This document shows positions 39,803 to 61,331 of a stretch of 64,000 nt of DNA, in pieces. Within the stretch, counting starts at the first letter, position 1. The number at the start of each line of letters is the position of its first letter. Source of the DNA: an uncultured Candidatus Rokubacteria bacterium (GTDB lineage: Bacteria; Methylomirabilota; Methylomirabilia; Rokubacteriales; CSP1-6). Both the position numbers and the translations under genes were made by a program. The notes beneath the pieces are model-generated. The model saw nothing but the letters and a program-made list of their open reading frames with translations, was not told where the DNA came from and made no database searches. The stretch is from the NCBI GenBank assembly GCA_963758635.1, contig CAVWWD010000005.1:448001-512000 (forward strand), written 5' to 3'.

Positions 39803-39981
39803 TCGCGGCCGCCGTCGGCGGTCGTGTCCACGGCATTTCCATGACCCTCGCGGCCGCCGTCGGCGGTCGTGTCCACGGCATTTCCATGACCCTCGCGGCC
39901 GCCGTCGGCGGTCGTGTCCACGGCATTTCCATGACCCTCGCGGCCGCCGTCGGCGGTCGTGTCCACGGCATTTCCATAACC
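39803..39981. repeat. Tandem repeat array A: 45-bp unit x4 (TCGCGGCCGCCGTCGGCGGTCGTGTCCACGGCATTTCCATGACCC)
   Basis: Units start at 39803, 39848, 39893 and 39938; essentially identical, no spacers; intergenic between oppC and oppA. Confidence 0.95.
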
Positions 39982-40005
39982 GTCGCCTCGCCTTCGGCTC
40001 GGCTC

Positions 40006-40908
40006 CTACTTCATTTTGGGGTCGAGGGCGTCTCGGACGCCGTCACCGAAGAAGGTGAACGCGAGCATCGTGATCCCGATGGCGATCGACGGGAACACGC
40101 AGAGGTGCCAGTACGAGCGCAGGTATTGCTGGTTCTCGCCGACCATCTGCCCCCAGGACGGGGTGGGCGGATTGATGCCCACGCCGATGAAGGACAGCGC
40201 GGCCTCGGTGAAGATCGCCTCGGGAATGCCGAAGCTCACCGCCACCACGATGGGCGTGAGCGCGCTGGGCAGCACGTGCCGTGTCATGACGCGGATGAAG
40301 CCGGCGCCGAGGGCCCGGGCGCCCTCGACGAACTCCTTCTCCTTGATCGAGAGCACCTGGGCGCGCGTCTGTCGGGCGATGCCGACCCAGCCGGTGAGGC
40401 CGATGGCGATGAAGATGTTGGTGAGCCCCGCCCCCAGCATCGACATGATGAGGATGACGAACAGCAGCCGGGGGAAGGCGTACATCACGTCGATGAAGCG
40501 GGTGAGCAGCAGGTCGATCCGGCCGCCCGACGTAGCCCGGCGACGAGGCCGATCGGCACGCCGATGGCGACCACGATCACCTGGGCGCCGAGGCCGACGA
40601 GCATCGACACCCGCGCCCCGTAGATCATGCGCGAGAGCATGTCGCGGCCGAGCTGATCCGTGCCGAGCGGGTACTCGCGCGTCGGCCCCTCGTTGAGGCG
40701 GCCGAAGTTCGGCTTCGTGTAGGAGTACGGGGCCACCCAGTCCGCGAAGATGGCGACGAGGCAGAGCACGATCACCACGCTGCCGCCCGCCACCGCCAGC
40801 TTGTTGCGGAGCAGGCGCCGCCAGGCGTCCTGCCAGAGGCTGGTGCCCCGGACGCGGGGCACCGCGATCGCGGGCAGGCGTCTCCTCGACGGCTGGGTGC
40901 GTCGCCAC
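40006..40908 (-). CDS. oppC: Peptide ABC transporter permease (frameshifts near 40530 and 40860)
   Basis: WRRLLRNKLA, PLGTDQLGRD, EFVEGARALGA EAA motif, GDGVRDALDP. Confidence 0.9.
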   Translation of the reverse strand: MATHPAVEETPARDRGAPRPGHQPLAGRLAAPAPQQAGGGGRQRGDRALPRRHLRGLGGPVLLHEAELRPPQRGADARVPARHGSARPRHALAHDLRGAGVDARRPRRPGDRGRHRRADRPRRRATSGGRIDLLLTRFIDVMYAFPRLLFVILIMSMLGAGLTNIFIAIGLTGWVGIARQTRAQVLSIKEKEFVEGARALGAGFIRVMTRHVLPSALTPIVVAVSFGIPEAIFTEAALSFIGVGINPPTPSWGQMVGENQQYLRSYWHLCVFPSIAIGITMLAFTFFGDGVRDALDPKMK

Positions 40909-40926
40909 GTCAGTCGCCCCATCGGG

Positions 40927-41853
40927 TCAGTACTTGATGCGGGGGTCGATGAACCCATACGCGAGGTCGACGAGCAGGTTCATGATGGCCAGGAAGACGC
41001 CGTAGATCAGCACCACCGCCATGATCATCGGGTAGTCGCGGCCGGTCATCGACTGGACGAAGAAGCGTCCCATGCCCGGCACGCGGAAGATGGACTCCAC
41101 GAAGAACGAGCCCGTGCCGATCGCCGCGAACATGGGCCCGAGGAGGGTCACCACCGGGATCAGCGCGTTCTTGAGCACGTGCTTGAGGACCACGGGCCGC
41201 TCGGCGAGGCCCTTGGCGCGCGCGGTGCGGATGTAGTCCGAGCGGATGACCTCGACCATGCTCGATCGGGTGAACCGGGCGATGATCCCGAGCGGGCCGA
41301 GGGCCAGCGCCACCGCGGGCAGGACCCAGTCGCGGGGCGAGCCCCATCCGCCGGTCGCGAACAGCGGGATGACGAACGAGAACAGCACGATCAGGAAGAC
41401 GGCGAGGACGAAGTTCGGCAGGCTCACGCCGAGCGTGGCCAGGCTCACGCACACGTAATCCCACGAGCGATTCTGGTAGACGGCGGCGAGGATCCCGAGG
41501 GCGACGCCCCCCGTCACCGCGATCGCGAGGGCGAGGCTCCCGAGGAGCAGCGACACCGGGAACGTGTCGACGATGATCTCCGACACGGTCCGCGTCTGGT
41601 AGATGAACGACTGCCCGAAGTCCCCGCGCACGATCTTGGTGAGGAAGATCCAGAACTGCTCGTAGAGGGGCTTGTCGAGCCCGTAGGCCCTGGCCAGGTT
41701 CTTCTGCGCCTCCGGAGACAGCGGGTTGGCCCCCTCGGCGACGGGGTCGAGGGGACTCCCGGGAGTGGCGTGCATCACCAGGAAGGTGACCAGCGCCATC
41801 GCGAGCAGCGTCGGGACCAGCCAAGCAAGGCGGTAGATCGCGTAGCCGAGCAC
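40927..41853 (-). CDS. oppB: Peptide ABC transporter permease
   Basis: YGLDKPL, GDFGQS, DYIRTARAKGL, DLAYGFIDPRI. Confidence 0.93.
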   Translation of the reverse strand: MLGYAIYRLAWLVPTLLAMALVTFLVMHATPGSPLDPVAEGANPLSPEAQKNLARAYGLDKPLYEQFWIFLTKIVRGDFGQSFIYQTRTVSEIIVDTFPVSLLLGSLALAIAVTGGVALGILAAVYQNRSWDYVCVSLATLGVSLPNFVLAVFLIVLFSFVIPLFATGGWGSPRDWVLPAVALALGPLGIIARFTRSSMVEVIRSDYIRTARAKGLAERPVVLKHVLKNALIPVVTLLGPMFAAIGTGSFFVESIFRVPGMGRFFVQSMTGRDYPMIMAVVLIYGVFLAIMNLLVDLAYGFIDPRIKY

Positions 41854-41955
41854 CGGACCTCCCGGAACCCCTTGAAATGCTGCCCGAACTATCCGGCAAG
41901 GCCGTCGCGAAGTCAAGAACGGCGCGGCTCTTCCGGGATGGTATCCTCACGCCGG

Positions 41956-43818
41956 ATGGCGACCGTTTCCCTCACTGTCCTGCCCGATTCCCGCACGCTC
42001 CAGGTCGAAAGCGGCACCAGCATCCTGAAGGCGGCGCACGGCGCCGGCGTGGACATCACCGCCACCTGCGGGGGCCGCGGCCGCTGCACGTCCTGTCGCG
42101 TCAAGTTCGTCGCCGGCACGGCGCCCCCGCCCACCGTGATGGACGAGCTGCAGCTCGGCGACGACCTGGTCCGCGAAGGCTACCGCCTGTCCTGCCAGTG
42201 CCCGGTCACCGCCGCGATCACGGTGCAGGTGGCTCCCCCGCTCGACGAGCGGAGCTTCCAGATCCTGGGCCCGGGGCCGGCGCCGGGGGCCGGCCGCGTG
42301 ACCATCGCGGCCGGCGTCGACAAGCGCATGGTCGCGGTCACCCTGTCCAAGGACGAGCACCAGCAGACCTCCGACCTGGAAGCGCTCGAGGCGGCCCTCG
42401 GCGGGCCCGGCATGCCCGTGGCCGGGGACGTGCTGAAGGGGCTGCCGCAGGCGCTCCGCGAGTACGCCGGCCAGGCCACGGTCACCACGTTCGCGGGCTC
42501 GGTCATCGCCGTCGAGGCCGGCGACACCGCGCTCCTGAAGTTCGGGCTCGCCGTGGACGTGGGCACCACGAGCGTGGTCACGACGCTGATGGAGCTCGAG
42601 TCCGGGGAGCAGCTCGGGTCGGTCTCGAGCCTGAACCCGCAGGCGGTGTTCGGCGGCGACCTCATGTCGCGCATCGCCTTCGCGCAGTGGAACCCCGGGA
42701 ATCTGAAACGGCTCCAGACGCGGATCGTGGGGCTCCTCAACCAGCACGTCGAGCAGCTCACCGCGGACACCGGCGTCCTCGCCAAGTGGATCTACAAGGT
42801 CGTCGTGGTCGGCAACACGTGCATGCACCACATCCTGCTCGGCATCGACCCGACCCACGTGGGGCTCGCGCCCTATGCCCCGGTGGTGCGCGCGCCGGTG
42901 ACGCGCGCGGCGCGCGAGCTCCACCTGCGCGTGCACCCGGAGGCGCGGGTGTGCTTCCTGCCCCTCGTGGCGGGCTTCCTCGGCGCCGACGCGGTGGCGG
43001 TGGCGCTCGCCACGCGCATCGGCGACACGCCGGAGCGGCGGATCGCGGTGGACATCGGCACCAACGGCGAGGTGCTCCTGGGCTCGAGCGAGCGCCTGTG
43101 GGGCTGCTCGGCTCCCGCCGGCCCCGCGCTCGAGGGCGCGCAGATCCGCCACGGCATGCGGGGCGCGCTGGGCGCCATCGACCGCGTGTGGATCGAGGAC
43201 GGCGACCTCCGCCTCCACACGATCGGCGACGCGGCGGCCCAGGGCATCTGCGGCTCGGGCATCGTGGACGCCGTGGCCGTGCTCCTGGACGCCGGCGTGA
43301 TCGACTGGACGGGGCTGATCGACGTGGACGGCCGCGCGCGGCTGCCCGCGCCGCTCCGCTCCCGCGTGGAGATGCGCGGGGAGGACCGCGTGATCGTCCT
43401 TGCGCGGGCCGGCGAGCACGGCGCCGCCCACGAGATCGTGCTCGGTCAGGACGACGTCCGCCAGGTCCAGCTCTGCAAGGGGGCGATCGCCTCGGGGGCG
43501 GCCATGCTCCTCCGTGTGGCCGGCATGACGCCCGATGACGTGTCGGAGCTGATGCTGGCCGGCGGTTTCGGCAACTACCTGTCGATCCGGAGCGCGCTCC
43601 GGATCGGCCTCGTCCCCGCCGTGCCCGAGGCGCGCATCCGCTACGTGGGCAACGCGGCGGCGCTGGGCGCCCAGCTCGCGCTGGTGTCGGAGGCCGAGCG
43701 CGCGCGAGCCGAGGAGGTGGCGCGGCGGATCGAGCACGTTTCGCTCGCCGCGCACCCCGACTTCCAGGACGTGTTCGTCGACTGCATGAACTTCCCGCGG
43801 GACCCGGACCCGCGATGA
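41956..43818 (+). CDS. ASKHA/DUF4445 RACo-type ATP-dependent reductive activator of corrinoid proteins with N-terminal 2Fe-2S domain
   Basis: CGGRGRCTSC..RLSCQ ferredoxin; DVGTTS, NPQ..GGDLMSRI, GNTCM, DIGTNGE, AGPALEG, GICGSG, AGGFG. Confidence 0.92.
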   Translation: MATVSLTVLPDSRTLQVESGTSILKAAHGAGVDITATCGGRGRCTSCRVKFVAGTAPPPTVMDELQLGDDLVREGYRLSCQCPVTAAITVQVAPPLDERSFQILGPGPAPGAGRVTIAAGVDKRMVAVTLSKDEHQQTSDLEALEAALGGPGMPVAGDVLKGLPQALREYAGQATVTTFAGSVIAVEAGDTALLKFGLAVDVGTTSVVTTLMELESGEQLGSVSSLNPQAVFGGDLMSRIAFAQWNPGNLKRLQTRIVGLLNQHVEQLTADTGVLAKWIYKVVVVGNTCMHHILLGIDPTHVGLAPYAPVVRAPVTRAARELHLRVHPEARVCFLPLVAGFLGADAVAVALATRIGDTPERRIAVDIGTNGEVLLGSSERLWGCSAPAGPALEGAQIRHGMRGALGAIDRVWIEDGDLRLHTIGDAAAQGICGSGIVDAVAVLLDAGVIDWTGLIDVDGRARLPAPLRSRVEMRGEDRVIVLARAGEHGAAHEIVLGQDDVRQVQLCKGAIASGAAMLLRVAGMTPDDVSELMLAGGFGNYLSIRSALRIGLVPAVPEARIRYVGNAAALGAQLALVSEAERARAEEVARRIEHVSLAAHPDFQDVFVDCMNFPRDPDPR

Positions 43819-44678
43819 AGCTCCCCGCCGGCCTCGTGGGCGCGGGCGTGGGCCCGCGCGTGGCGACGATCGACGCGCGCTGGCTCATGGCCTACGCGGC
43901 GGCGCTCGGCGAGACCGACGCCGGGTACTTCGACACGCGGCGCGACGTCGGCATCCTCGCGCATCCCCTCTTCCCGGTGTGCTACGAGTGGCCGCTCGCC
44001 CTGGAGATGCGCGCGCAGCTCCCCGAGGCCATCGCGCTCCGCGGCGTGCACGCGACCCACGACCTCCGGCTTCGTCGCCTTCCGCGCGCCGGCGATCGCC
44101 TCGCCCTGCGCGCCGCCGTCGTCGCCGTGGCGCCGCGCCGCTCGGGCGCGTACGTGCTGAGCCGCTACGAGGCGGTCGACGCCGCGGGCGAGGTGCTGAG
44201 CGTGACGGAGTACGGCAGCGTGTACCTGGGCGTCGAGTGCGAGCCGGAGGGTGCGGCCCTGCCCGGCGCCCCGGACGCGGACGAGGACGCCCCGCCCGCG
44301 TGGTCGGAGCCGGTGACGGTGTCGGCCGGGCTCGCCCACGTCTACACGGAGTGCGCGCGGATCTGGAACCCGATCCACACCGACCCCGCGGTGGCGGCCC
44401 GCGCCGGGCTGCCCGACATCATCCTGCACGGCACGGCCACGCTCGCCCTCGGCGTGTCGCGCACGCTCCACCGCGCCGGCGCCAGCCCCTCCGGGGTGTC
44501 GCGCGTCACGGGAAGCTTCCGGGCGATGGTCCCGATGCCGTCGACGCTCGCCATCGAGGGCTATCCCGCGGAAGCGACGGCCGAGGGCGCGCGGCTGCCC
44601 TTCCGGGCGCGCGTGGCGGGCGGACGCCCGGCGATCCGCGACGGCAGCGTGTGGCTGCGTCCTCGAACGGGATCGTGA
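43815..44678 (+). CDS. Double hot-dog MaoC-type dehydratase
   Basis: AHPLFPVC, GVHATHD, WNPIHTD..A..AGLPDIILHG; ATGA overlap with the RACo gene. Confidence 0.88.
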   Translation: MKLPAGLVGAGVGPRVATIDARWLMAYAAALGETDAGYFDTRRDVGILAHPLFPVCYEWPLALEMRAQLPEAIALRGVHATHDLRLRRLPRAGDRLALRAAVVAVAPRRSGAYVLSRYEAVDAAGEVLSVTEYGSVYLGVECEPEGAALPGAPDADEDAPPAWSEPVTVSAGLAHVYTECARIWNPIHTDPAVAARAGLPDIILHGTATLALGVSRTLHRAGASPSGVSRVTGSFRAMVPMPSTLAIEGYPAEATAEGARLPFRARVAGGRPAIRDGSVWLRPRTGS

Positions 44679-44789
44679 ATGAATGGCGAGACGGCACGGC
44701 GCGGGTCCGCAGAAGCGCGGTGTCGGCCCGCGCGCTGAAGCCGCAATCCGCATTCCTTCACACCCCCGAAGCGAAAGGACATCAGGCCG

Positions 44790-45797
44790 ATGACGAAGCG
44801 AGAGAGGATCGCGGCGGCGCTGCGGCGGGAGCCCACCGACCGGCCGCCCTACGCGTTCTGGCGCCACTTCCCGAGCACCGACCGATCGCCCGCCGCGCTG
44901 ACCCAGTCCACGCTGCGCTTCCACGAGCGCTACGGGTCGGACTTCCTCAAGGTGACGCCGGCCGGCGGCTACGCCGTCGAGGACTGGGGCTGCGTGGAGA
45001 GCGACGAGGTCGCGCCCGACGGCCACCGCCCGTGCGCGCGCCACGGGATCAACGCGCCCGAGGACTGGAAGCGCGTCCGGCCCGTCGACATCTCGTCGTC
45101 GGGCTGGGGCACCCACCTGGAGTCGGTGCTCCGCTGCGTCGTCGATCGCCGCGCCGACGGCCCCGTCATGCCGACGGTGTTCAGCCCGCTGTCGCTGGCG
45201 CGGAAGCTCGCGGGCGATCGCCTGAAGTACGACCTGGTCGAGAACACGCAGACGGTGGTGGACGCGCTGGAGGCGATCACCGAGACCATCCTGGCCTTCG
45301 CGGAGGCGTGCTTCAAGGAAGGCGCGGAGGGCTTCTTCTACTCCATCCAGGCGGCGAGCGCCGACTTCCACACCGAGGAGGAGTACGCGCGGTTCGGCGA
45401 GCCCTACGACCGCCGCATCCTGGAGGCGGTCGGTCCGCGCTCGATCCTGACCGTGCTCCACTGCCACGGCGAGCGCCTCATGTTCGATCGGCTCGCCGCG
45501 CTCCCCGCCGACGCCTGGAACTGGGACGACCGCCGCGCCGGGCCCACGCTGTCCGAGGGCAAGGCCATGGTGCGCGGCGCCGTGATCGGCGGGCTCAACC
45601 AGTGGACCACGCTGAAGGACAGTCCCCCGCCCGACGCCCGCGCCGAGGCGCAGGACGCGATCGCGCAGTGCGAGGGCGCCGGTCTCATCCTGGGCGCGGG
45701 CTGCGTCCTGCCGACCGGCCACTCCGACGCGACGCTCGTGGAGCTGGTGAAGTCCCTGGGCGGCGAGGTGAAGCTGGCCGGCATCCCGCCCGCGTGA
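44790..45797 (+). CDS. Uroporphyrinogen decarboxylase / MtaA-CmuA superfamily TIM-barrel protein
   Basis: MTKRERI..DRPP..FWRHF, TVFSPLS, LHCHG, LILGAGCVL. Confidence 0.85.
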   Translation: MTKRERIAAALRREPTDRPPYAFWRHFPSTDRSPAALTQSTLRFHERYGSDFLKVTPAGGYAVEDWGCVESDEVAPDGHRPCARHGINAPEDWKRVRPVDISSSGWGTHLESVLRCVVDRRADGPVMPTVFSPLSLARKLAGDRLKYDLVENTQTVVDALEAITETILAFAEACFKEGAEGFFYSIQAASADFHTEEEYARFGEPYDRRILEAVGPRSILTVLHCHGERLMFDRLAALPADAWNWDDRRAGPTLSEGKAMVRGAVIGGLNQWTTLKDSPPPDARAEAQDAIAQCEGAGLILGAGCVLPTGHSDATLVELVKSLGGEVKLAGIPPA

Positions 45798-46008
45798 GCG
45801 CGTCGGCCGCGGGCATCGATTCCGCGTGAACCCGTGAGCCGGCGCGCCTGACATCCACGGTGTCGAGAGCTGACACTCCCGCGCCCGGCTGGGCCCACGT
45901 CCGCCGCGACGGCGCGCGCCGCGGACGCGCGATCAAGCACTTGGCGCGCTGCGCCGCCGTCATCCCTCCACGCCGAACGAGGCCCTCCGCAAGGTGATGG
46001 CGAGGCCG

Positions 46009-47088
46009 CTACTTCGCGACGTTGAAGCGGAAGTGGCAGATCTCGCCGTCCTGCACGACGTAGTCCTTCCCTTCCAGGCGGAACTGGCCGCGCTCGCGGA
46101 CGGCGGCCATCGAGCCGCCGGCGGCCACGAGCTCCTCGTAGCCCACGACCTCGGCGCGGATGAATCCGCGAGCGATGTCGGAATGGACGGCGCCCGCCGC
46201 GTCCTGGGCGCGGGTGCCCTGCGGCACCGACCACGCGCGCACCTCGTCCTCGCCCACGGTGAAGAACGAGATGAGCCCGAGCAGGTCGTAGCAGTCGCGG
46301 AGCACGCGGACGATCGCCGGCTCGGCGAGGCCCAGGTCGGCGAGGAACGCCGCCTGCTCCTCGCCGGCGAGCTGGGCCACCTCGGCCTCGATCACCGCTG
46401 AGACCCAGCCGAGCCGCGTGCCCGGCCGGCGCGCGACCTCCTCGAGGTCGAAGCTCTGCGCGAGGGTCCCGCCCCGCGCGATGTCCTTCTCGGAAAGGTT
46501 CAAGCAGTGCAGGATCGGCTTCTGCGAGAGGAACGTGAAGCCGCGGATCACGCGGAGGTCGTCCTCGGAGAGGCCCGCGGCGCGGATCGCCGTCTCCGCC
46601 TCGAGGGTGGGTTTGAGCGTGGAAAGGACGGCCTGCTCCCGCACCTCGGCGTCCACCTTCTTCTTCCGGATCGACACCTCCAGCCGCTCGAGCCGCCGCT
46701 CCACCACCTCGAGGTCGGCGAGGATCAGCTCGGTCTCGAGGTCGACGATGTCGGCGCGCGGGGTGGCCGCGGCGCCCGCGGCGTCGGGGAAGGCGCGCAC
46801 CACGTGCAGCAGCGCGTCGGCGTTCCTGAACTCGCGCGCGTCGAGCCCCTGGCGCTCGCCCTTCTCGATGCCCGCGAGGTCCACGACCTCGAAGCTCGCG
46901 AACGTCGTCTTCTTCGGCGTGAACAGCGCGGACAGGCGGTCGACGCGGGTGTCGGGCACGCGCGCCACGCCCACGTGCAGCTCGCCGCGCGTCCCCCCGA
47001 ACGAGGAGGTGGCCACGCTCTGACCGGTCAGGAGGTTGAACAGCGAGGTCTTCCCGCTCTTCGGAAGGCCGACGAGGCCGATCTTCAT
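46009..47088 (-). CDS. ychF: Redox-regulated ATPase YchF
   Basis: GLPKSGKTS, DLAG, FFTVGEDEVRAW, HSDIARGFIRAE, EGKDYVVQDG. Confidence 0.95.
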   Translation of the reverse strand: MKIGLVGLPKSGKTSLFNLLTGQSVATSSFGGTRGELHVGVARVPDTRVDRLSALFTPKKTTFASFEVVDLAGIEKGERQGLDAREFRNADALLHVVRAFPDAAGAAATPRADIVDLETELILADLEVVERRLERLEVSIRKKKVDAEVREQAVLSTLKPTLEAETAIRAAGLSEDDLRVIRGFTFLSQKPILHCLNLSEKDIARGGTLAQSFDLEEVARRPGTRLGWVSAVIEAEVAQLAGEEQAAFLADLGLAEPAIVRVLRDCYDLLGLISFFTVGEDEVRAWSVPQGTRAQDAAGAVHSDIARGFIRAEVVGYEELVAAGGSMAAVRERGQFRLEGKDYVVQDGEICHFRFNVAK

Positions 47089-47186
47089 GGAGGCCACATG
47101 CTACCATGCCGCCGTGATGGCCGGGGCGCCGCCGCGCGATCGCGTCGCCGGACGGCTCGAGGCGTCGGCCGAGCGCTGACCCCCTC

Positions 47187-48071
47187 GTGTCCGCCATCCG
47201 CTCCCTGGACGTTCCGGGCGCGCTCGTCGCGCTCCTCCTCGCCGCGCTGTGGGGCGGCAACCCCGTCGTGGTGAAGCTCTCGCTCGCCGACGCGCCGCCC
47301 CTTCGCCTCGCCGCGATGCGCTTCGCCCTCGGCGGGCTCACGATCCTCGCGTGGGCGCTCTGGACGCGGCGGAGCGGGCTCCTCAGGCTGCGCCCCGGCG
47401 AGGGGCGCGCCATCGTGTCGCTCGGCCTGATCTTCGCCGTCCAGATCGGCCTGATGAACGTGGGGCTCGACCTGACCACCGCCGCCCACGGGGCGGTGCT
47501 GCTGAACTCCTACGCGATCCACACCGTCGTGCTCGCCCACTTCTTCGTGCCCGGCGACCGCATGTCCGCGGCGAAGATCGGCGGCATCGCCATCGCCTAC
47601 GCGGGCATCCTCCTGCTCTTCGGGCGGGACCTGTCCTTCTCGAGCGGCACGCTCATGGGCAACGTCGTGGTGATGGTGAGCGCGTTCCTCCTCGGCGAGC
47701 GCACCGTGTACACGGCCCGCGCGGTCCAGCGCTTCGACCCCGTGAAGCTCCTCCTGGGGCAGGCGGCCATCGGCACCGCGTGCTTCCTCGCCGCCAGCCT
47801 CTGGCTCGAGCGGGCCGAGCCCACGCGCTACACGTGGTCGCTGGCCGCCAGCCTCCTCTATCAGGGCCCCATCGTGGCCGGCTTCAACTTCATCGTGAAC
47901 GCCTGGCAGCTCCAGGTGTATCGTCCGAGCGCGCTCGCCGCCTGCGCGCTCACCTCGCCCCTCTGGGGCGTGCTGCTCGCGGCCACGCTGGCGCGCGATC
48001 CCCTCACCCCTGCGCTTCTCGCGTCGAGCGGGATGGTGGTGGCCGGCATGTGGCTGGCCACCCGACGGTGA
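47187..48071 (+). CDS. DMT/EamA family transporter
   Basis: About 10 hydrophobic segments; LWGGN, RFALGG. Confidence 0.88.
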   Translation: MSAIRSLDVPGALVALLLAALWGGNPVVVKLSLADAPPLRLAAMRFALGGLTILAWALWTRRSGLLRLRPGEGRAIVSLGLIFAVQIGLMNVGLDLTTAAHGAVLLNSYAIHTVVLAHFFVPGDRMSAAKIGGIAIAYAGILLLFGRDLSFSSGTLMGNVVVMVSAFLLGERTVYTARAVQRFDPVKLLLGQAAIGTACFLAASLWLERAEPTRYTWSLAASLLYQGPIVAGFNFIVNAWQLQVYRPSALAACALTSPLWGVLLAATLARDPLTPALLASSGMVVAGMWLATRR

Positions 48072-48077
48072 TCCGTC

Positions 48078-49389: not shown

Positions 49390-49421
49390 CGCTGCCCGCC
49401 GCCCTCGCGTAGCGTCGGCCC

Positions 49422-49787
49422 ATGCCGACCCGGCCGGCGCGCGCGCTCGAGGTGGTGGCGAACCCGCATCCCGACCGCGACTACGAGGTCGCGCTCGAGA
49501 TCCCCGAGTTCACCTGCCTCTGCCCGGTGACCGGCCAGCCGGACTTCGCCACCATCCGCATCCGCTACGTGCCCGACCAGCACCTCGTGGAGCTCCGGTC
49601 GATCAAGCTCTACATCTGGTCGTACCGCGACGAGGGCGCCTTCCACGAGGACGTGACCAACCGCATCCTCGACGACTTCGTCGCCGCGGGCCGGCCCCGC
49701 TGGATCGAGGTGGTGGGCGACTTCAACGTGCGCGGCGGGATCAAGACCGTCGTCCGCGTCTGCCACGGCAAGCGCCCCGACCTCTGA
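49422..49787 (+). CDS. queF: preQ1 synthase (7-cyano-7-deazaguanine reductase)
   Basis: [35 protein letters not shown]. Confidence 0.95.
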
Positions 49788-49806
49788 GGATCGGCACCCG
49801 CTCGGA

Positions 49807-50688: not shown

Positions 50689-50697
50689 TGCGCGATT

Positions 50698-53618: not shown

Positions 53619-53673
53619 ACGGACGCTGGGACGGAGGGGTGTATCCATTCGTTTACACGTGGCCGTAGCCGCC

Positions 53674-54426
53674 TCAGACGAACCCGTACGCCGACCATCC
53701 GCCGTCGACGGTGAGGATCTCCCCCGTGACGTAGGCGGCCGCGTCCGAGGCCAGGAAGACGGCGATCTCCCCCATCTCCTCGGCGGTGCCCAGCCGGCCC
53801 ATCGGCGTCCGCCGCACGAGGCGCTCGGTGTCGAGGAGGCCGCGGCCCGAGAGGTCGCGGATCATCTCGGTCTCCACGTAGCCGGGCGCGATCGCGTTCA
53901 CGCGCACGCCGCGCGCCGCCCACTCGATGGCCATGACCTTCGTCATCATGTCGAGCCCGGCCTTCGGCACGCAGTACGCCAGGCGCTGGGGAAAGGGCAT
54001 GCGCCCGGTGATCGAGCTCACGTGGATGATCGTGCCACGGCCGCGAGCGAGCATGCCGCCCACCAGGGCCTGGGTGAGCAGGAAGATCGACGTGAGGTTC
54101 AGCTCGAGCCCGTAGCGGTAGTCGGCCTCGGCCAGCGACTCCGTGGGCGCCACCACCGTCTTGCCCGCGTTGTTCACGAGGATGTCCACGGCGCCCAGCG
54201 CGGCCTCGGCCTCGCGGGCCAGGCGGCGCACGTCGTCGGCGCGGGTGAGGTCCGCGGCGACCGGCACCACCGTAGGCCCCAGCTCGCGGGCGAGGGCGGC
54301 GCAGTCGGCCTCGGTGCGGGAGTTCACGACGACGCGCGCGCCCTCGCGCACGTAGGCGCGCGCGATGCCGAGACCGATGCCCTTGGTCGAGCCGGTCACG
54401 ACCGCGGTCTTGCCCGCGAGCCTCAA
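53674..54426 (-). CDS. SDR family oxidoreductase
   Basis: TGSTKGIG, NNAG, YCVPK, VNAIAPG. Confidence 0.93.
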   Translation of the reverse strand: MRLAGKTAVVTGSTKGIGLGIARAYVREGARVVVNSRTEADCAALARELGPTVVPVAADLTRADDVRRLAREAEAALGAVDILVNNAGKTVVAPTESLAEADYRYGLELNLTSIFLLTQALVGGMLARGRGTIIHVSSITGRMPFPQRLAYCVPKAGLDMMTKVMAIEWAARGVRVNAIAPGYVETEMIRDLSGRGLLDTERLVRRTPMGRLGTAEEMGEIAVFLASDAAAYVTGEILTVDGGWSAYGFV

Positions 54427-54430
54427 TGGC

Positions 54431-55456
54431 TTACGGGAACACCGCGACCTTGATCGACTCCGGGGCGCGATGGGCCTCGAAGGCGGAGGCGATGGCGTCG
54501 AGCGCGACGCGGTGAGTGAGAAGCGGCCCCGTGGTCACGGCGCCCGTGGCGAGGAGGCGGATCGCCTCGGGGAACTCGTCCTGGTAGATCATCGAGCCCA
54601 GGATCGCGAGCTCGCGGCGCACCACGGGGAAGAAGTGCACGTGCGATGGCTCGTGGGGGAGCCCGGTGAGGACGATCCGCCCGCCCGGGCGCGCCAGCTC
54701 CACCGCCTGCTCGACGGCCGCGGCCGTCCCCGCCGTCTCGATCACCAGGTCCACGCCCTCGCGCCCCGAGAAGGCGCGGGCCGCCTCGCCGTGGCCACCG
54801 CCCAGCGTGGTCGCGACCGCCTCGGCGCCGACCTTCCGGGCCACGTCGAGCCGCCGCTCCGTGCGTCCCACCGCGAGGACGCGAAGCCCGCTGGCGCGCA
54901 GCGCCTGGACGGCGAGGAGCCCCAGCGTCCCCGCCCCCACCACCGCCGCGGACTGGCCCGGACGCGCGTCGCCCCGACGGACCGCGCGGGCCACCACGGC
55001 CAGCGGCTCGGCGAACAGGAGCGCGTCGTCGGCAAGGTGGGCGGGCGCGGGCCAGCAGAGGCGCGCGGGCACCCGTACCTCGTCGGCGAAGCCACCGTCC
55101 TCGTCGATGCCCACGGTGACGCGGCGGAGGCAGAGGTTCCGGTTGCCCTCGACGCAGAGCGGGCAGTGGCCGCACGCGTAGTTGGGCTCGACCGCGACCT
55201 TGTCGCCGGCGCGGACGTTGTCGACGCCGGCCCCCGTCGCCACCACGCGCCCGACCATCTCGTGCCCCATGACGAGCGGGTAGCGTACCGGACGGTCGCC
55301 GTTCCAGATGCGGTAGTCGGTGCCGCACAGGCCCGAGCCGATCACCCGCACCACCGCTTCCCCGGGGCCGGGGGACGCCGCCGCCCGCTCCTCGACGGTG
55401 AGCGCGCGAGGACCGTGGAGCAGGGCCGCGCGCACGCGCCGGGACTCCGCCGTCAT
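54431..55456 (-). CDS. Zinc-dependent alcohol/threonine dehydrogenase family protein
   Basis: GLCGTD, GHEMVG, CGHCPLC..C, GAGTLG. Confidence 0.93.
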   Translation of the reverse strand: MTAESRRVRAALLHGPRALTVEERAAASPGPGEAVVRVIGSGLCGTDYRIWNGDRPVRYPLVMGHEMVGRVVATGAGVDNVRAGDKVAVEPNYACGHCPLCVEGNRNLCLRRVTVGIDEDGGFADEVRVPARLCWPAPAHLADDALLFAEPLAVVARAVRRGDARPGQSAAVVGAGTLGLLAVQALRASGLRVLAVGRTERRLDVARKVGAEAVATTLGGGHGEAARAFSGREGVDLVIETAGTAAAVEQAVELARPGGRIVLTGLPHEPSHVHFFPVVRRELAILGSMIYQDEFPEAIRLLATGAVTTGPLLTHRVALDAIASAFEAHRAPESIKVAVFP

Positions 55457-55459
55457 GCC

Positions 55460-57253
55460 TCAGGCGTACAGCCCGTCGATCACGGACTCGTACGTCTCGC
55501 GGATGACCTTGCGCTTGACCTTGAGGGTGGGCGTGAGCATGCCGTTGTCGACCGTGAAGTCCTCGGGGAGGATCTGGAACTTCTTGATCTTCGCGTAGGA
55601 CTGGAGATCGGCGTTCCGCGTCTCCACGATCTTCGAGACCCGCCCCACCACGCGCGGATGCTTGCAGAGCGCCGTGGCGTCCGGCACGGCGATGCCCTCG
55701 GCCTTGGCGAAGGCGGTGAGCTCCTCCGGGTTGAGCGTGATGAGGGCCACCGGGTACGGCCGCTTGTCGCCGTAGACCAGCACCTGGCTGATGAACGGGT
55801 CGCCCTTGAGGAGGTTCTCGATGTTCTGCGGAGCGATGTTGATGCCGCCCGCGGTGATGATCAGGTCCTTCTTCCGGTCCGTGATGAAGAGGAACCCATC
55901 CTCGTCCATCCGCCCGATGTCGCCGGTGGCGAACCATCCGTCGGACAGGAACACCTCGGCGGTGGCGTCGGGCTTCTTGAAGTAGCCTCGGGCGATGTTC
56001 GGGCCGCGGCCCAGGATCTCGCCGTCGGGGGCGATCTTCACCTCGAGGCCGGGCAGCGGCTGTCCGACCGAGCCGAACTTGAAGTGGGTGGGGCGGTTGA
56101 ACGTGAGGACGGGGCACGTCTCGGTGAGGCCGTAGCCCTCGAGGATCAGGACGCCGGCCCCGTGGAAGAACTGCGCGATCTCCGGAGACAGCGGCGCGCC
56201 GCCGGAGACGGCGAAGCGCAGGCGGCCCCCGAGGGCGGCCTGCATCTTCCCGAACACGAGCTTCTCGGCGATCCGGTACTTGAGGCCGAGCAGGCCGGGC
56301 ACGGGCTGGCGCGCCTGCTTGAGCTTCGAGACCTGCTGGCCCACGGAGACGGCCCAGTGGAAGATCTTCCGCTTGAGCGGCGAGCCCGCCTCCGCGCGCG
56401 CGAGGACGCCCGCGTACACCTTCTCGAACACGCGCGGCACCGCGCAGATGAAGTGCGGGCGCACCTCGGGGAGGTTCTCGCGCAGCTTGTCGATGCTCTC
56501 GGCGAAGGCGGTGGTGAGCCCCCGGTACACGCCGGTGAAGCTCTCGAGCCGCCCGAACGAGTGCGCGAGGGGCAGGAACAGGAGGTGCACGTCCGCCTCA
56601 TCGACGGCCATGGTCTGGCCGGACGAGCCGAGCGCGGCCATGTGGTTGCCGTGCGTCTGGACCACGCCCTTGGGAGGGCCGGTGGTGCCCGACGTGTAGA
56701 CGATGGTGGCCGTCTCGTCCGGCTTGCCCTCGGCGATGCGGCGGTCCAGCTCCTCCCGGACGGCGGCGAGGCCCTGTCGTCCCTGCTCGCGGAGCGCCGC
56801 CCACGTGAGGAGCCGGCCCCCGGGCTCCTTGAGGTCGGGCCCGTCGAGGACCACGATCTGCTCGAGGCCGCTCATCTTCCCGCGCACCTCCAGCACCTTC
56901 GCGAGCTGGGTGGGGTCCTCGACGATCAGCGTCTTCACGCCGGCGTCGTTGACGATGTACTGGACGAGGTCGGACGGATACGTCGGGTAGATCGGGATCG
57001 TCACGCCGCCGATCGAGAAGATGGCGAAGTCGGCCTGCACCCACTCGGGGCGGCCGCCCGCGAGGATCGCGACCGCATCGCCCCGCTTGCGGCCGAGGCC
57101 GATGAGGCCGGCGGCGACCTCGCGCACCGCGTCGCCCACCTGGCGCCAGGTCGCGGTCTGCCAGGCGCCCCCGCGCTTCCACTGCTGGGCGGGCTTGTCC
57201 CCGCTCTTCCCGACGCGGTCCCAGAACATCTTCGCCAGCGTGTCGTGAGCCAT
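55460..57253 (-). CDS. fadD: Long-chain fatty acid-CoA ligase
   Basis: YTSGTTGPPKG, GYGLTE, GWFATGDIG, DRKKDLI, TPTLKVKR. Confidence 0.93.
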   Translation of the reverse strand: MAHDTLAKMFWDRVGKSGDKPAQQWKRGGAWQTATWRQVGDAVREVAAGLIGLGRKRGDAVAILAGGRPEWVQADFAIFSIGGVTIPIYPTYPSDLVQYIVNDAGVKTLIVEDPTQLAKVLEVRGKMSGLEQIVVLDGPDLKEPGGRLLTWAALREQGRQGLAAVREELDRRIAEGKPDETATIVYTSGTTGPPKGVVQTHGNHMAALGSSGQTMAVDEADVHLLFLPLAHSFGRLESFTGVYRGLTTAFAESIDKLRENLPEVRPHFICAVPRVFEKVYAGVLARAEAGSPLKRKIFHWAVSVGQQVSKLKQARQPVPGLLGLKYRIAEKLVFGKMQAALGGRLRFAVSGGAPLSPEIAQFFHGAGVLILEGYGLTETCPVLTFNRPTHFKFGSVGQPLPGLEVKIAPDGEILGRGPNIARGYFKKPDATAEVFLSDGWFATGDIGRMDEDGFLFITDRKKDLIITAGGINIAPQNIENLLKGDPFISQVLVYGDKRPYPVALITLNPEELTAFAKAEGIAVPDATALCKHPRVVGRVSKIVETRNADLQSYAKIKKFQILPEDFTVDNGMLTPTLKVKRKVIRETYESVIDGLYA

Positions 57254-57377
57254 GGTCACCTCCGCATGGTCGCCGGTGACGCTACGCCCGCATCGTTACT
57301 GAGCCCCGCGCATCAGACCAATGCCGAACGGTGGGACGGTAGAGGCCCGTGGCGGTTACCGTACCCGGTGAAAGTCA

Positions 57378-57800
57378 TCAGCGGACGACGAGCTGATCCA
57401 TCTCGATGGCGAGCGAGGCGGCCCGGAAACGGCCGTGCACCTGCGCTCGCGTGCCCTCGGGAGGGATGGCGGCGGCCCGGCCCCCGGCGCGTACGCTGCC
57501 CACGGGCATCGCGACCACCCAGACGCCCGCGCGCCCGTCCATCAGCAGGAACATCGGCACCACGTCCTGGTAGGGCGGGTTGCCGAGCACGGTCACCTGC
57601 CGGTACTGCGGGGGCCCGGTGACGCCGTCGACGGCCACGCGCGTGTCGTTGTACCGCCAGGGATCGGAGAGGAGCACGCCCACGCTGACCGGATCGCTCG
57701 GGTTCTCCGGCGCGGCGGCGGCCGGCCCGGCGCCGCTCCCCGCCGCGAGCGCGAGGGCCACGATCAGCGCGGCGAGCCGCCGGACCCGACCGGACGCCAT
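57378..57800 (-). CDS. Hypothetical exported protein (OB-fold-like)
   Basis: Signal peptide ending AAA; VGVLLSDPWRYNDTRVAVDG..G..AQVHGRF. Confidence 0.6.
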   Translation of the reverse strand: MASGRVRRLAALIVALALAAGSGAGPAAAAPENPSDPVSVGVLLSDPWRYNDTRVAVDGVTGPPQYRQVTVLGNPPYQDVVPMFLLMDGRAGVWVVAMPVGSVRAGGRAAAIPPEGTRAQVHGRFRAASLAIEMDQLVVR

Positions 57801-58111
57801 CACCGCATCGACACGCGGAACGCGTCGATGTAGCTGCCCACCATGTTCCACGTGCCCTCCACCTCCACCCGGTCGCCGGAGCGGATCGCCTGCTGCGGTG
57901 GCGCGAGCACGCGCACGTGCGCGCCCGCCTCTATGAGCAGGAACCCCTGGCGGCCCCCCGCCGCGGGCTCGATGAGCCCGACGGTGCCGTGGACGAGGAC
58001 GGGGCGCCGGTCGAAACGCGCGGAGTCGCGGAGGATCTGCCCGAGCGGCTGGGCCTCGGCGACGCCGGCCACGGAGATCGCGAACGCGAGGAGCCAGGCC
58101 GCGATTCGCAC
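57800..58111 (-). CDS. Hypothetical exported protein (OB-fold-like), paralogue of its neighbour
   Basis: Signal peptide ending AEA; LGQILRDSARFDRRPVLVHGTV..GDRVEVEGTW. Confidence 0.65.
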   Translation of the reverse strand: MRIAAWLLAFAISVAGVAEAQPLGQILRDSARFDRRPVLVHGTVGLIEPAAGGRQGFLLIEAGAHVRVLAPPQQAIRSGDRVEVEGTWNMVGSYIDAFRVSMR

Positions 58112-58118
58112 GGCTCCC

Positions 58119-58616
58119 TCACCTCTCCCGGCGCTTCTCCAGGCGTTCTTCCAGCGCGCGGAGCTGCTCGCGAAGCGCCACCACCTCGTCCTTGAGGCTG
58201 TCGCCGTCGGCCGGCTTGTCCGGCTTGGCGTCAGCCGCCGGCTCCGGGGCGTGCGGCACCGTCCAGCCCCCGCGCGAGGCCCATTCACGGACCACCCGGT
58301 CGACCTCCCGCTGGCTCGTGATGATGGACTCGAGGCTCGACCGGAACGACTTCTGGACGAAGTCCTGCCACACCTCGCCGTGCTTGATGAGCTGATGGAG
58401 GAACGACGGCGGGAGCGAGGTGCGGTGGTTGCGCTCCTTCTCGAGGATGATCTGAGCCAGGGTCACCGACGTGAGGTCCTCGCCGGTCGACACGTCGACC
58501 ACCGAGATCTCCTTGCCGGCGCGGATCAGCTCCTCGAGCTCCTCCAGCGTGACGTAGCGGCTCTCCTGCGTGTCGTAGAGCTTCCGGTTGGAGTACCGCT
58601 TGATGACGTACGCCAT
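58119..58616 (-). CDS. phaR: Polyhydroxyalkanoate synthesis regulator (PHB_acc_N DNA-binding domain)
   Basis: IKRYSNRKLYDTQESRYVTLE..TGEDLT..TLAQII. Confidence 0.92.
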   Translation of the reverse strand: MAYVIKRYSNRKLYDTQESRYVTLEELEELIRAGKEISVVDVSTGEDLTSVTLAQIILEKERNHRTSLPPSFLHQLIKHGEVWQDFVQKSFRSSLESIITSQREVDRVVREWASRGGWTVPHAPEPAADAKPDKPADGDSLKDEVVALREQLRALEERLEKRRER

Positions 58617-58712
58617 ACGCGGCGAAGTCTAACACCCTGCGTCAGGGGCGACAAGGCCGCGGCCGGCGCGGCCGGCGCGGCAGGCGCGGCCGGCGCGGAT
58701 GGCCGCGGAACG

Positions 58713-59279
58713 CTAGGCGCGCTGCGGCGGGGGCCCGGGCGGCTCGGCGGCCGCGGCGAAGCTCGCGAGGACCGCGGCCCCGTCCATCGCCCACGCCCAC
58801 GGCTCGAGCGCCCACGCCGTCCACAGGCCGACGAGGTCCAGCGGCCGGCGATAGACCACGGGGGTCCGCGACGGCATCACCAGGGCCTCGCCGGTGAGGA
58901 CCTCCTCGCCCCGCTGGTTCCGGCACACCGTGCGGAGGCGCACGCGGTTCCGCTCGCGGCTGGTCTCGATGACCTGCACGCGGGCCCGGATGGCGTCTCC
59001 GAGCTTCACGGGACGCAGGAACCTGAGGTCCTGGGACACGTAGATGGTGCCGGGGCCGGGCAGCCGCGTCCCGATCACGGCGGAGATCAGCCCGGCCGTC
59101 CAGATGCCGGGAGCGATCCGCTCCTTGAACGTGCTGTCCGCCGCGTACGCCGGATCGGAGTGGATGGGGTTGTCGTCGCCCACCGCGTCCACGAAGCCCG
59201 CGATGTCCCGCTCGGCGGCGACGCGGACGATCTCCGCCTCGTCGCCTTCCTCGATCTGGTCGATCGTGAGCCCGATCAT
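58713..59279 (-). CDS. phaJ: MaoC-family (R)-specific enoyl-CoA hydratase
   Basis: GDDNPIHSD..FKERIAPG..GTRLPGPGTIYVSQDLRFLRPV; alternative start at 59318. Confidence 0.85.
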   Translation of the reverse strand: MIGLTIDQIEEGDEAEIVRVAAERDIAGFVDAVGDDNPIHSDPAYAADSTFKERIAPGIWTAGLISAVIGTRLPGPGTIYVSQDLRFLRPVKLGDAIRARVQVIETSRERNRVRLRTVCRNQRGEEVLTGEALVMPSRTPVVYRRPLDLVGLWTAWALEPWAWAMDGAAVLASFAAAAEPPGPPPQRA

Positions 59280-59314
59280 CGCGCCCCGGGCCGCGGTCCC
59301 GCGCCGAGGGCCTC

Positions 59315-59896
59315 TCATGACCCTCGCAGAACACGGTAACCGCCACGGGCCCTTACCGTCCTACCGCTCGGCATTAGTCTGCTGCCCGAGGCTCTGAGCC
59401 GGGCGAGGACGGCGTCGAGGCGGTCCTCCACGCCCTCGATCTTCTCCTCGAGCTGGACGATCTGCTGGGCGATACCCGTCACCTGCGCGCGCGACGGCAT
59501 GCCGAGGCCGGCGAGCCCGGCCTCCTGCTGCTCCGCGGCGGCCTTCTTCGCGGGGCCCGCGCCGGCGAGGAATCCTTCGAGCTGCTTGCCCAGGAGCTTC
59601 GCGAAGCTCTCCGTGCCCATCGCCTGCTCGAGGGCCCGCGACCAGGCGGCGATCCACTGGTCGAGGAACTGCTTCCACTGGGTCATCAGCTCGGGCGACG
59701 CGGGGCCCTGCGTCATCACCTTCGACCACGCGGCGATCCCCTGGTCCATGAAGGGCTTCCAGAAGGCCTGCGGGTCCAGCGCGGCGGGGGCGCCGGCCAT
59801 CGGCGGCTGCCCCACCATGCGGAGCCAGGCCTGGGTGCCCTCGTCGATCTGGCGCCGCCACATCTCCATCAGGTCCGTGCCTGCCGCGTCCACCAT
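59315..59896 (-). CDS. phaE: PHA synthase accessory subunit (PhaE / class IV PhaR-like)
   Basis: Trp-rich helical protein with MGTESFA..LGMPSR..IVQLEEKI coiled coil, directly downstream of phaC; C-terminal end uncertain. Confidence 0.7.
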   Translation of the reverse strand: MVDAAGTDLMEMWRRQIDEGTQAWLRMVGQPPMAGAPAALDPQAFWKPFMDQGIAAWSKVMTQGPASPELMTQWKQFLDQWIAAWSRALEQAMGTESFAKLLGKQLEGFLAGAGPAKKAAAEQQEAGLAGLGMPSRAQVTGIAQQIVQLEEKIEGVEDRLDAVLARLRASGSRLMPSGRTVRARGGYRVLRGS

Positions 59897-59909
59897 GACC
59901 GTCCCTCCT

Positions 59910-61010
59910 CTACGACCGGGCCTGGAGCCAGGACGACACCTTCGGCCAGCAGTGCACCGACGCGCCGCGCCCGGCGATGAGCGAGATGTGCCCGCCCGGG
60001 AGCTCGATGTACTCGCGATCCGTGCTGCCCACGGCGTCGATGAGCGGCTTGACGCAGCCCGGCGGCGCGATGTTGTCCTCGCGCGCCCCCACCGCCAGCA
60101 CGGGACACGTGATGCGGCGGAGGTCGACGGGACGGTCGCCCAGGCGCAGCTCGCCCTGGACCAGCCGGTTCTGCTGGTAGAACTCCTTCACCCACTGGCG
60201 GAAGAACTCGCCGGGGAACGGCATGTATTCGTTCGCCCACTTGTTGAGCGCGTTGAAGCCGGACACGTACTCCGGGTTCCACAGGTTCCACCAGAGGTTC
60301 AGGTTGGTGGACAGGTCCATCGTCGGCTTCAGGAGCTTGAACCCCAGACGGACCATGTCCGCGGGAATGCTGCCGAGGGTGTCCACGTAGCGGTCCACGT
60401 CGAAGTACCGCGCGTCCAGCCACTGGCCGAAGAGCCCGACGCGCGAGAAGTCGAACGGGCCGGCCATGTTGATGAAGTTCTTCACCGGGAACTCGGGATG
60501 CGTGGCGAGGAAGCTCGCGGACAGCGGCGCGCCCATGCAGTAGCCCAGCACCGACATCTCGCGCGCCCCGGACGACTGCAGCGCCTTGGCGGCGAGCCGG
60601 GGCAGGAGCGAGGTCACGACCTCCGTCACGTCGAGGCCATTGTCCTCCGGTCCGAAGATCCCCCAGTCGACCAGGTAGAAGTCGAAGCCCTGGCCGGTCA
60701 TGAACTCGACGAACGAGCCGCCGCGCATGAGGTCGAAGATATACGGCCGGCTGATGCCGAGGTTGGGCACGAAGAGCAGCGGCGTCCGTACCGTCCGCCG
60801 CGAGGCGTACCGGTAGAGCCGGGACTTGTTCTTCTTGTAGATCACCTCGCGCGGCGTGGGCCCGACCTCGGGCTCCTTCGGGTTCATCACCATCTCGCCG
60901 AAGTTCTTCATGCGCAGGAAGTTTCGGCTGATCTCCTCGTGCCAGCGCGCGAGCACCTCCGGCGACACGCGGGGGGGATCGAGCGTCATCGTGAACTGTT
61001 CGTCCTTCAT
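59910..61010 (-). CDS. phaC: Class III/IV-size poly(3-hydroxyalkanoate) synthase
   Basis: 366 aa; GPTPREV, RPYIFDL, DWG, lipase box GYCMG, EDNIAP (Asp), GGHIS (His). Confidence 0.9.
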   Translation of the reverse strand: MKDEQFTMTLDPPRVSPEVLARWHEEISRNFLRMKNFGEMVMNPKEPEVGPTPREVIYKKNKSRLYRYASRRTVRTPLLFVPNLGISRPYIFDLMRGGSFVEFMTGQGFDFYLVDWGIFGPEDNGLDVTEVVTSLLPRLAAKALQSSGAREMSVLGYCMGAPLSASFLATHPEFPVKNFINMAGPFDFSRVGLFGQWLDARYFDVDRYVDTLGSIPADMVRLGFKLLKPTMDLSTNLNLWWNLWNPEYVSGFNALNKWANEYMPFPGEFFRQWVKEFYQQNRLVQGELRLGDRPVDLRRITCPVLAVGAREDNIAPPGCVKPLIDAVGSTDREYIELPGGHISLIAGRGASVHCWPKVSSWLQARS

Positions 61011-61105
61011 GCACGCCTCCGGGGATATGCCTTCGTGTGGGGGAGCATCGGGGTCATGTTACATCGTGATGACGCTCTGCGGCATTGCTTTGTGAGCCGA
61101 GCCGA

Positions 61106-61266
61106 CATATGGAAATGCCTTGGAACCAGGCCAGAAGACGGTTGCCGGCCATTTTGTGAACGCATATGGAAATGCCTTGGAACCAGGCCAGAAGACGGTT
61201 GCCGGCCATTTTGTGAACGCATATGGACATGCCCTGGAACCAGGCCAGAAGACGGTTGCCGGCCAT
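61106..61266. repeat. Tandem repeat array B: 57-bp unit x~2.8 (CATATGGAAATGCCTTGGAACCAGGCCAGAAGACGGTTGCCGGCCATTTTGTGAACG)
   Basis: Units start at 61106, 61163 and 61220 (third has two substitutions and is truncated); intergenic upstream of phaC. Confidence 0.95.
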
Positions 61267-61301
61267 GCGGTAGCCAGAAGTCCGCCATCCGCGGCACGAG
61301 A

Positions 61302-61324
61302 GAGGGGGGGCCGGGCCCCCCCTC
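61302..61324. repeat. GC-rich inverted repeat (REP-like or terminator)
   Basis: GAGGGGGGGCC-G-GGCCCCCCCTC with perfect 11-bp arms, just downstream of the SCP2 stop. Confidence 0.7.
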
Positions 61325-61331
61325 GAGAGTT

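Follow-up and report, generated by a model that had tools for sequence, protein, structure and literature searches.

A dispersed, hairpin-bearing repeat behind two tandem arrays in a Rokubacteria genome

Two tandem arrays and their surroundings

The window analyzed here is a 64,000-nt stretch of an uncultured Rokubacteria bacterium, positions 448001-512000 of contig C5 in the draft genome G000 (6.17 Mb, 71-72% GC, 12 contigs, 87% complete). It carries two intergenic tandem arrays, A and B, which are local expansions of one gene-less repeat of about 65 nt that has 117 loci in G000. Tandem Repeats Finder placed array A at 39803-39986 (period 45, 4.1 copies, 98% matches) and array B at 61106-61266 (period 57, 2.8 copies, 98% matches). 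The same 12-mer precedes both, at 40005-39994 on the minus strand for A and at 61094-61105 on the plus strand for B, and every unit of both arrays contains the core ATGGAAATGCC(G/T)TGGA, although the last B unit departs from it at two positions. Array A lies sense to an ABC-transporter operon and array B antisense to a PHA-synthase-like operon. The original prediction, made from the sequence of the window alone, had these places, units and orientations right, but counted three units in B rather than 2.8.

Read on the minus strand, element A begins with a predicted strand-specific hairpin of 27 nt (39981..40007) with a GNA triloop and two tandem G·A pairs; the 12-mer forms its 5' arm, and in the outer pair this copy has a compensatory variant. 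Next to the hairpin on its 5' side lies a target-like host motif (40008..40015, minus strand), consisting of the last codons and first stop base of the upstream ABC permease gene and fitting G-M-H-K-K at -5..-1. The same K-M-K-stop gene end is seen in most of the 13 relatives in which the site is empty. On the other side the hairpin is followed by a 3' tail (39952..39980, minus strand; ATGGAAATG-N3-TGGA...ACC), the part originally taken as the core. Array A itself (39803..39986, minus strand) is made of 4.1 units of 45 nt, each comprising the 3' foot of the hairpin, the tail and about 15 nt of local flank. Two bases distinguish the first unit from the other three, and a 6-nt direct repeat bounding both ends of the array suggests that the first duplication was of the slippage type.

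Element B is less complete. A target-like motif (61084..61091, plus strand) is followed by the 5' arm of the hairpin, which holds the 12-mer (61092..61105, plus strand), but the 3' arm is deleted and element B is therefore unable to form the family hairpin. The array (61106..61266, plus strand) contains 2.8 units of 57 nt, each composed of tail, local flank and a collapsed relic of the hairpin foot.

Short-read contigs from independent runs cover array A in its last part, reaching 39832 and 39841, although none spans the array. In general, the arrays are unlikely to stem from assembly stutter, because the units carry substitutions and independent assemblies contain arrays of the same family.

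The neighbouring genes are context only. Downstream of A, outside the element, lies a family 5 ABC solute-binding protein (PF00496; 38018..39748, minus strand). Array B sits between a PHA-synthase-like alpha/beta hydrolase (59910..61010, minus strand) and an SCP2 protein (PF02036; 61332..61655, minus strand). The ABC permease upstream of array A (40006-40922, minus strand) is split near 40485 into two reading frames. Single bases at 40529-40539, 40881 and 40916 are missing from independent contigs, so the split probably reflects assembly indels. The spacer around array B (61011-61331) is a repeat hotspot, in which relatives (L130, L134, L135, L139) have other, unrelated small repeats. A third locus of the same family, with two copies, lies 2 kb past the window end, at C5:514093-514191.

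A repeat family in G000 and its relatives

The exact 10-mer core occurs 66 times in G000, far above chance and almost always after the same hairpin. A profile built from 60 copies gave 153 matches at E<=1e-3, grouped in 117 loci, whereas the best match in the reversed genome, used as control, had an E value of 0.063. The proposal of one dispersed, non-autonomous family is borne out by these numbers. The element is about 65-70 nt long and gene-less, with the 27-nt hairpin followed by a tail that ends near ACC and contains two TGGAAA repeats 11 nt apart flanking three free bases (N3). It is distinct from other repeats of G000, the CTAG element included.

Other parts of the original description had to be revised. 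What is conserved is the hairpin plus tail and not a fixed core of 16 nt alone, and the "variable payload" is captured local flank. The GACGG..CGGCC motif, regarded as a shared trait, occurs in 2/117 loci, namely arrays A and B.

Copies are more often sense than antisense in co-directional gene gaps (58 vs. 26, p=0.0006), and a co-directional stop codon lies within -35..+13 of 48/115 copies, a plain count whose random expectation is unreliable. They are found at junctions of nuo, ribosomal and cell-division genes and as in-frame inserts in proteins; gene calls came from a home-made codon model, and many of the 22 "inside gene" calls resemble frameshift or read-through artefacts. At rluD the reading frame is opened by the ATG of the element, which likely donates the start codon there. 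Two 57-nt copies lie in frame within a predicted glycosyltransferase (C5:85119-85236; L168/L171); an orthologue of this insert was sought and not found. Similar in-frame arrays occur inside genes of G003, G226 and G223. The family is absent or sparse on contigs C1, C2, C6, C7 and C11 (0-0.9 copies per 100 kb) compared with C3, C5, C8 and C12 (2.4-2.8).

The hairpin was found in 57/158 other genomes of the same taxonomic family and in 0/92 from the rest of the phylum (control 0), with copy numbers from 0 to 90 across the family genomes. The strict G000 form was seen in none of 60 sampled relatives, yet in 16 metagenome stretches. The tail is not conserved between genera. Units of genera g53 and g4 measure 57-63 nt and end at the right in a second GA/GNA hairpin; they form head-to-tail arrays of up to eight, some in frame inside genes. 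Two hairpins are present in g53, g4 and g17 units, while most G000 copies have the left hairpin only.

Hairpin fold

The hairpin has the layout GC-GA-NNN-GA-GCC-GNA-GGC-GA-NNN-GA-GC, in which no uninterrupted stem exceeds 3 bp. Covariation was assessed on 106 copies chosen by a pattern in which the apical stem and the majority of G·A positions were fixed. The loop, left free in the selection, is GNA in 97/106 copies. The middle pair alternates between C-G (39 copies) and G-C (34), and is paired in 73/76 cases compared with a mean of 36.6 and a maximum of 50 in shuffles; the outer pair is C-G in 91 of the 106 copies, T-A in seven and G-C in two. In DNA, unlike in RNA, GNA triloops and tandem sheared G·A pairs form stable structures, and such a pattern is present on one strand only. 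Rfam gave no match at gathering threshold in the window and none over the element at E<=1 in three loci. With no covariance model matching, a known structured RNA is rejected, and together with the DNA-type loop this speaks against the processed small-RNA array that had been entertained at the outset.

The same fold is met in viral contigs. A hairpin-only pattern matched nine viral stretches, three with the full fold; a related pattern matched 22 and a stricter one 17, counts in which the same virus sometimes appears twice. The full element pattern was absent from viral contigs. In the viral contigs, whose GC content is 28-66%, the hairpin is intergenic and single-copy; it lies close to genes for T7-like terminases and, in two contigs of small circular single-stranded DNA (ssDNA) viruses, upstream of the Rep gene; the 27-mer is present in two phages of 38-39% GC. 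These occurrences name no enzyme, but they suggest that the fold may be a recurrent single-strand DNA module. The GA/GNA hairpin occurs once each in the unrelated viral contigs L181, L183, L187 and L211-L227, and in L183 its 5' flank also fits the target motif.

Empty sites, boundaries and target motif

Site A is empty in 13/13 relatives, where the junction measures 13-46 nt compared with 257 in G000. Site B lacks hairpin and tail in 6/6 relatives with both flanking genes adjacent (seven more loci had one flank only). Because these orthologous sites are empty, as had been anticipated, the family is taken to be mobile, and we are highly confident that the repeat is real, dispersed and mobile. 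Among 72 copies of relatives that were mapped to G000, 58 lie at positions without a listed G000 copy. The junction is filled in G000 as well for 9/16 mapped copies of an ~83%-identical lineage and for 5/56 of other genera, some with compensatory changes. Empty paralogous sites within G000 were not found.

No target-site duplication was detected in the 69 full copies at k>=3, some subfamilies having only a 2-4 nt overlap, and at most 4/10 terminal bases are complementary in any of the 69. A classical miniature inverted-repeat transposable element (MITE), which has terminal inverted repeats and target duplications, is thereby ruled out. A nested filled/empty pair in G035 likewise lacks a target duplication. 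Copies in G016 and G035 lie nested within other repeats whose empty forms are common. One family of such landing-site repeats occurs in G035 and G240 (155 matches in G035) and another in G016, G246-G248 and G222 (3-62 per genome).

The motif G-M-H-K-K stands directly before the hairpin foot in 79/106 copies vs. 3.0% of background positions. It is host coding sequence in several filled/empty pairs, including the permease end at A, rimM, nuoK and others (gene names were assigned by reading the proteins). In genera g53 and g4 it precedes 17/28 first copies and 8/29 internal junctions, numbers that come from copies that are not independent; a higher frequency at first copies is expected if the target is left intact. 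At the other end, 42/69 full copies have GC immediately after the tail.

Local duplications

A local duplication of 15-143 nt was found at 47/117 loci, compared with 10/388 control gene ends, in agreement with the local tandem amplification first proposed. The duplicated units begin and end at variable positions with short overlaps. Doublets are direct, not inverted, and both orientations occur at 1/117 loci. The period is a multiple of three in 25/47 cases (p=0.005) and not in the other 22. A coding reading beginning MEMPW, suggested by the unit lengths of A and B, is incidental: besides those 22 periods, the B unit read from its ATG meets an in-frame TGA after 16 codons (61157-61159). The arrays are not clustered regularly interspaced short palindromic repeats (CRISPR), as already recognized from the window, since the units are 98% identical end to end and have no unique spacers.

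A 3' polarity of the duplications was considered and rejected. The raw count was 9 vs. 0 of 117, but after removal of coding flanks it became 0/24 vs. 6/52 (p=0.17, not significant). Two arrays, of 26 nt x 7.4 (C12:218037, minus strand) and 24 nt x 4.1 (C10:254536, minus strand), begin at the element 3' end and include little or no hairpin.

How the repeat may move

The reading that we favour, with about even confidence, is that the repeat is a non-autonomous, PATE-like element moved as a folded single strand by an HUH-type enzyme acting in trans. The top strand would fold into the GNA-triloop hairpin with sheared G·A pairs and the enzyme would bind it; insertion would occur just 3' of the host motif, leaving the motif intact, and repeated insertion or local recopying would produce head-to-tail arrays. 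Hairpin deletion and short-repeat slippage may then have trimmed and extended A and B. Surviving copies would accumulate at operon junctions, oriented in the sense direction; the probable reason is that the element can bring in a stop codon, a GAGG resembling a ribosome-binding site, and an ATG.

A series of results weighs against this reading, including the search for the enzyme itself. Y1-HUH genes occur in 32/159 family genomes, but not in G000 or G035, and 0/30 of their loci carry the hairpin; none of the eight g53 genomes has a Y1 match, although some of them are 99-100% complete and contain near-identical arrays. The hairpin is likewise missing from 8/8 TnpB loci (flanks within about 1.5 kb, as for the 30 Y1 loci), from 12/12 loci of IS91-type Y2 genes and from 11/11 reverse transcriptase (RT) loci, RT being present in 5/20 genomes and in none of four g53 genomes. 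G000 itself has no Y1 match and IS91-like fragments only. PF01797 gave no match there and neither did PF04986, for which the positive control was also silent, and tblastn with the HUH open reading frames (ORFs) of relatives revealed no Y1 remnant. The absence of an enzyme from G000 is weak evidence because the genome is 87% complete. The covariation counts refer to copies and not to independent events, and the ViennaRNA DNA model, which leaves the G·A pairs unscored, gave no significant hairpin (z -1.1 to +0.6); the putative G·A pairs draw their support from known chemistry rather than from a computed energy. In addition, left and right boundaries differ among copies and subfamilies, as in G035, where an 8-nt leader moves along with the unit, and the motif shows more degeneracy than the targets of IS605-type elements, which measure 4-6 nt. 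Replication-strand bias was also rejected as support for single-strand movement. The leading-strand excess of 64:37, based on weak skew in a 12-contig draft, comes from sense-in-operon copies (42:16) and is gone in antisense copies (13:13), which counts against a fork-coupled route of the IS608 kind.

An enzyme encoded elsewhere, as in the original prediction, is still what we infer; no copy was found to have one next to it. Among those listed, the neighbours at the G000 loci, judged from their N-termini, and the ORFs at 69 loci of relatives were ordinary genes only, as were the genes between close copy pairs. Other family searches in G000 gave two GIY-YIG, two IS110, one DUF559 and 19 integrase matches, plus four RVT_1 matches at two loci, none adjacent to a copy. 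Plasmid and phage BLAST returned short, weak coding matches only. The IS91-type fragments, similar to a G003 transposase (C11:175241-175636, C9:318163-318514, C11:224944-225078), lie far from copies, and the one mini-hairpin near such a fragment is no more than chance would give (24 loci outside compared with 24 in the reversed control). Y2 genes are present in 9/17 carriers and in 1/6 genomes with 0-1 copy, these genomes being kin and not independent; descent from IS91/ISCR is not supported, no shared ends having been found at the 12 Y2 loci. Genera g51, g49, g17 and g5 commonly have a single-copy RAYT-like gene of ~295 aa that is bounded by GGGGTCWG-type ends of its own (L065, L066, L085-L109). 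Repeats with GGGGTCWG-type ends are present in G000, but a RAYT-like gene is not found in the assembly.

The fruitless enzyme searches, which extend to 99-100% complete genomes with fresh arrays, leave room for a movement without dedicated transposase, in which host replication or repair proteins would read the hairpin (priming, restart or stalling on ssDNA) and the repeat would spread by short-homology template switching into sites like its own start. The boundaries in variable 2-6 nt overlaps and the recurrence of the fold in unrelated viral contigs, once in each and between genes, are in its favour. Yet most internal junctions of g53 arrays have no target motif, so that the donor junction need not be homologous to the target there; the motif shows fixed keto/amino positions and not a gradual loss of identity; the 3' polarity of duplications did not survive its control; and we know of no host protein that acts in such a manner. 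We regard this account as unlikely, though it comes next after the favoured one. Another recombinase in trans, either a tyrosine recombinase acting on a folded strand like integron integrases or an enzyme of IS110/IS607 type whose core measures 2-3 nt, would explain the lack of terminal inverted repeats and target duplication and the terminal GC or GCG overlap, which can be reconstructed in three g53/g4 insertions. The integrase-family and IS110 matches in G000 could supply such an enzyme, but none adjoins a copy, the overlap varies by subfamily and is missing in G035, and the neighbours are ordinary core genes instead of cassettes. Such a recombinase therefore seems to us rather improbable.

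We judge it similarly improbable that the repeat is an old domesticated cis-element, an mRNA junction or protein-binding site under selection whose spread is mostly past and whose arrays are ordinary slippage products. The filled junctions shared with the ~83%-identical lineage and, less often, with other genera, including those with compensatory changes, would fit, and so would the retention in the tail of the two TGGAAA repeats around N3. However, 58 of the 72 mapped sites are lineage-specific, the copy number across the family ranges from none to 90, the tail is unconserved across genera, and copies are found both within other repeats and, in frame, within genes. Least probable is an RNA-mediated element copied in by an RT, with template jumps making the arrays: the sense bias in operons, the ragged 3' ends and the two RT loci in G000 are compatible with it, but all four g53 genomes with fresh arrays lack an RT, the hairpin-free G186 and G036 have one, RT loci carry no element, and the loop and G·A pattern are of DNA type without Rfam match.

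Beyond the favoured HUH-type reading, a bolder interpretation, which we offer as speculative, is that the repeat represents a class of miniature ssDNA replicators with a sheared-G·A/GNA hairpin. These would spread without a known transposase, through an unrecognized enzyme family or host priming and repair proteins, land after a degenerate motif, and persist at operon junctions because they carry a stop, a ribosome-binding site and a start of their own, with the fold recurring in unrelated viruses. Short dispersed repeats without a known mobilizing enzyme are a long-standing gap, and the family offers a tractable case, with a covarying DNA-type hairpin, a measurable target motif and clean filled/empty pairs. 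Candidates are narrowed by G229 and G225, which are near-complete and have fresh arrays but neither Y1 transposase nor RT. Copies have also reshaped core operons of Rokubacteria. If a known HUH enzyme moves the repeat, it would be one more PATE/REP-like family, of modest interest.

Comparison with known systems

The cyanobacterial SDRs of Elhai et al. (2008) are reported to be very short dispersed repeats that are sequence-targeted and have no known enzyme; compared with that description, the present repeat is longer (60-70 nt) and has a covarying G·A hairpin. IS608 and ISDra2 have a reported fork bias, from which the repeat differs in that its bias is confined to sense-in-operon copies. No description of the family was found in the literature, a search outside which lay supplementary repeat tables (e.g. 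of PMC3733652 and PMC5737381) and most subscription papers.

CGTC-tagged repeats and Rickettsia palindromic elements are small and palindromic, have no associated transposase gene and include intragenic copies (PMC3733652). The repeat resembles them as an enzyme-less small palindromic element with some intragenic copies, but it has no CGTC tag and no stem of 8-9 bp and is arranged head-to-tail rather than head-to-head.

With repetitive extragenic palindromic (REP) sequences, their BIME composites and REPINs it shares a high-copy, intergenic, imperfect hairpin with a strand-specific irregular stem, and locus-specific tandem arrays that include flank (PMC3333891, PMC6006769, PMC8266576, PMC3116915); hairpin recognition and ssDNA motifs are treated in PMC8266576 and PMC5737381. 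The excess of such arrays over control gene ends (47/117 vs. 10/388) is reminiscent of BIME and REPIN clusters (PMC3333891, PMC3116915). Unlike REP, the GT[AG]G tag stands 0-2 nt 5' of the stem in 5/106 copies only (rule in PMC6006769), there is no fully paired basal stem of 7-20 bp (the longest has 3 bp), and doublets are direct instead of inverted. No RAYT gene is flanked by the repeat (0/30 loci), most such genes having their own GGGGTCWG-type ends.

PATEs (palindrome-associated transposable elements) of the IS200/IS605 type, including 52-bp terminal-only forms, have no terminal inverted repeats and no target duplication, carry end hairpins, follow a short 5' host target and often lack an intact transposase (PMC3119063). 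The repeat is similar in that it is too short to code, has neither terminal inverted repeats nor target duplication, has a short host target 5' of its left end, and often occurs in genomes where no intact transposase is found (PMC3119063). It differs in its hairpin, which relies on tandem G·A pairs, has a GNA loop and sits at the very end rather than subterminally, in a target that is degenerate over 5-8 nt, in its frequent head-to-tail arrays and in the lack of an independent replication-strand bias; moreover, no insertion sequence with matching ends was found (0/30 Y1 and 0/8 TnpB loci). Membership among PATEs is not established, because of the missing insertion sequence and the failed strand-bias test, but the comparison as a whole suggests that the repeat works most like a PATE.

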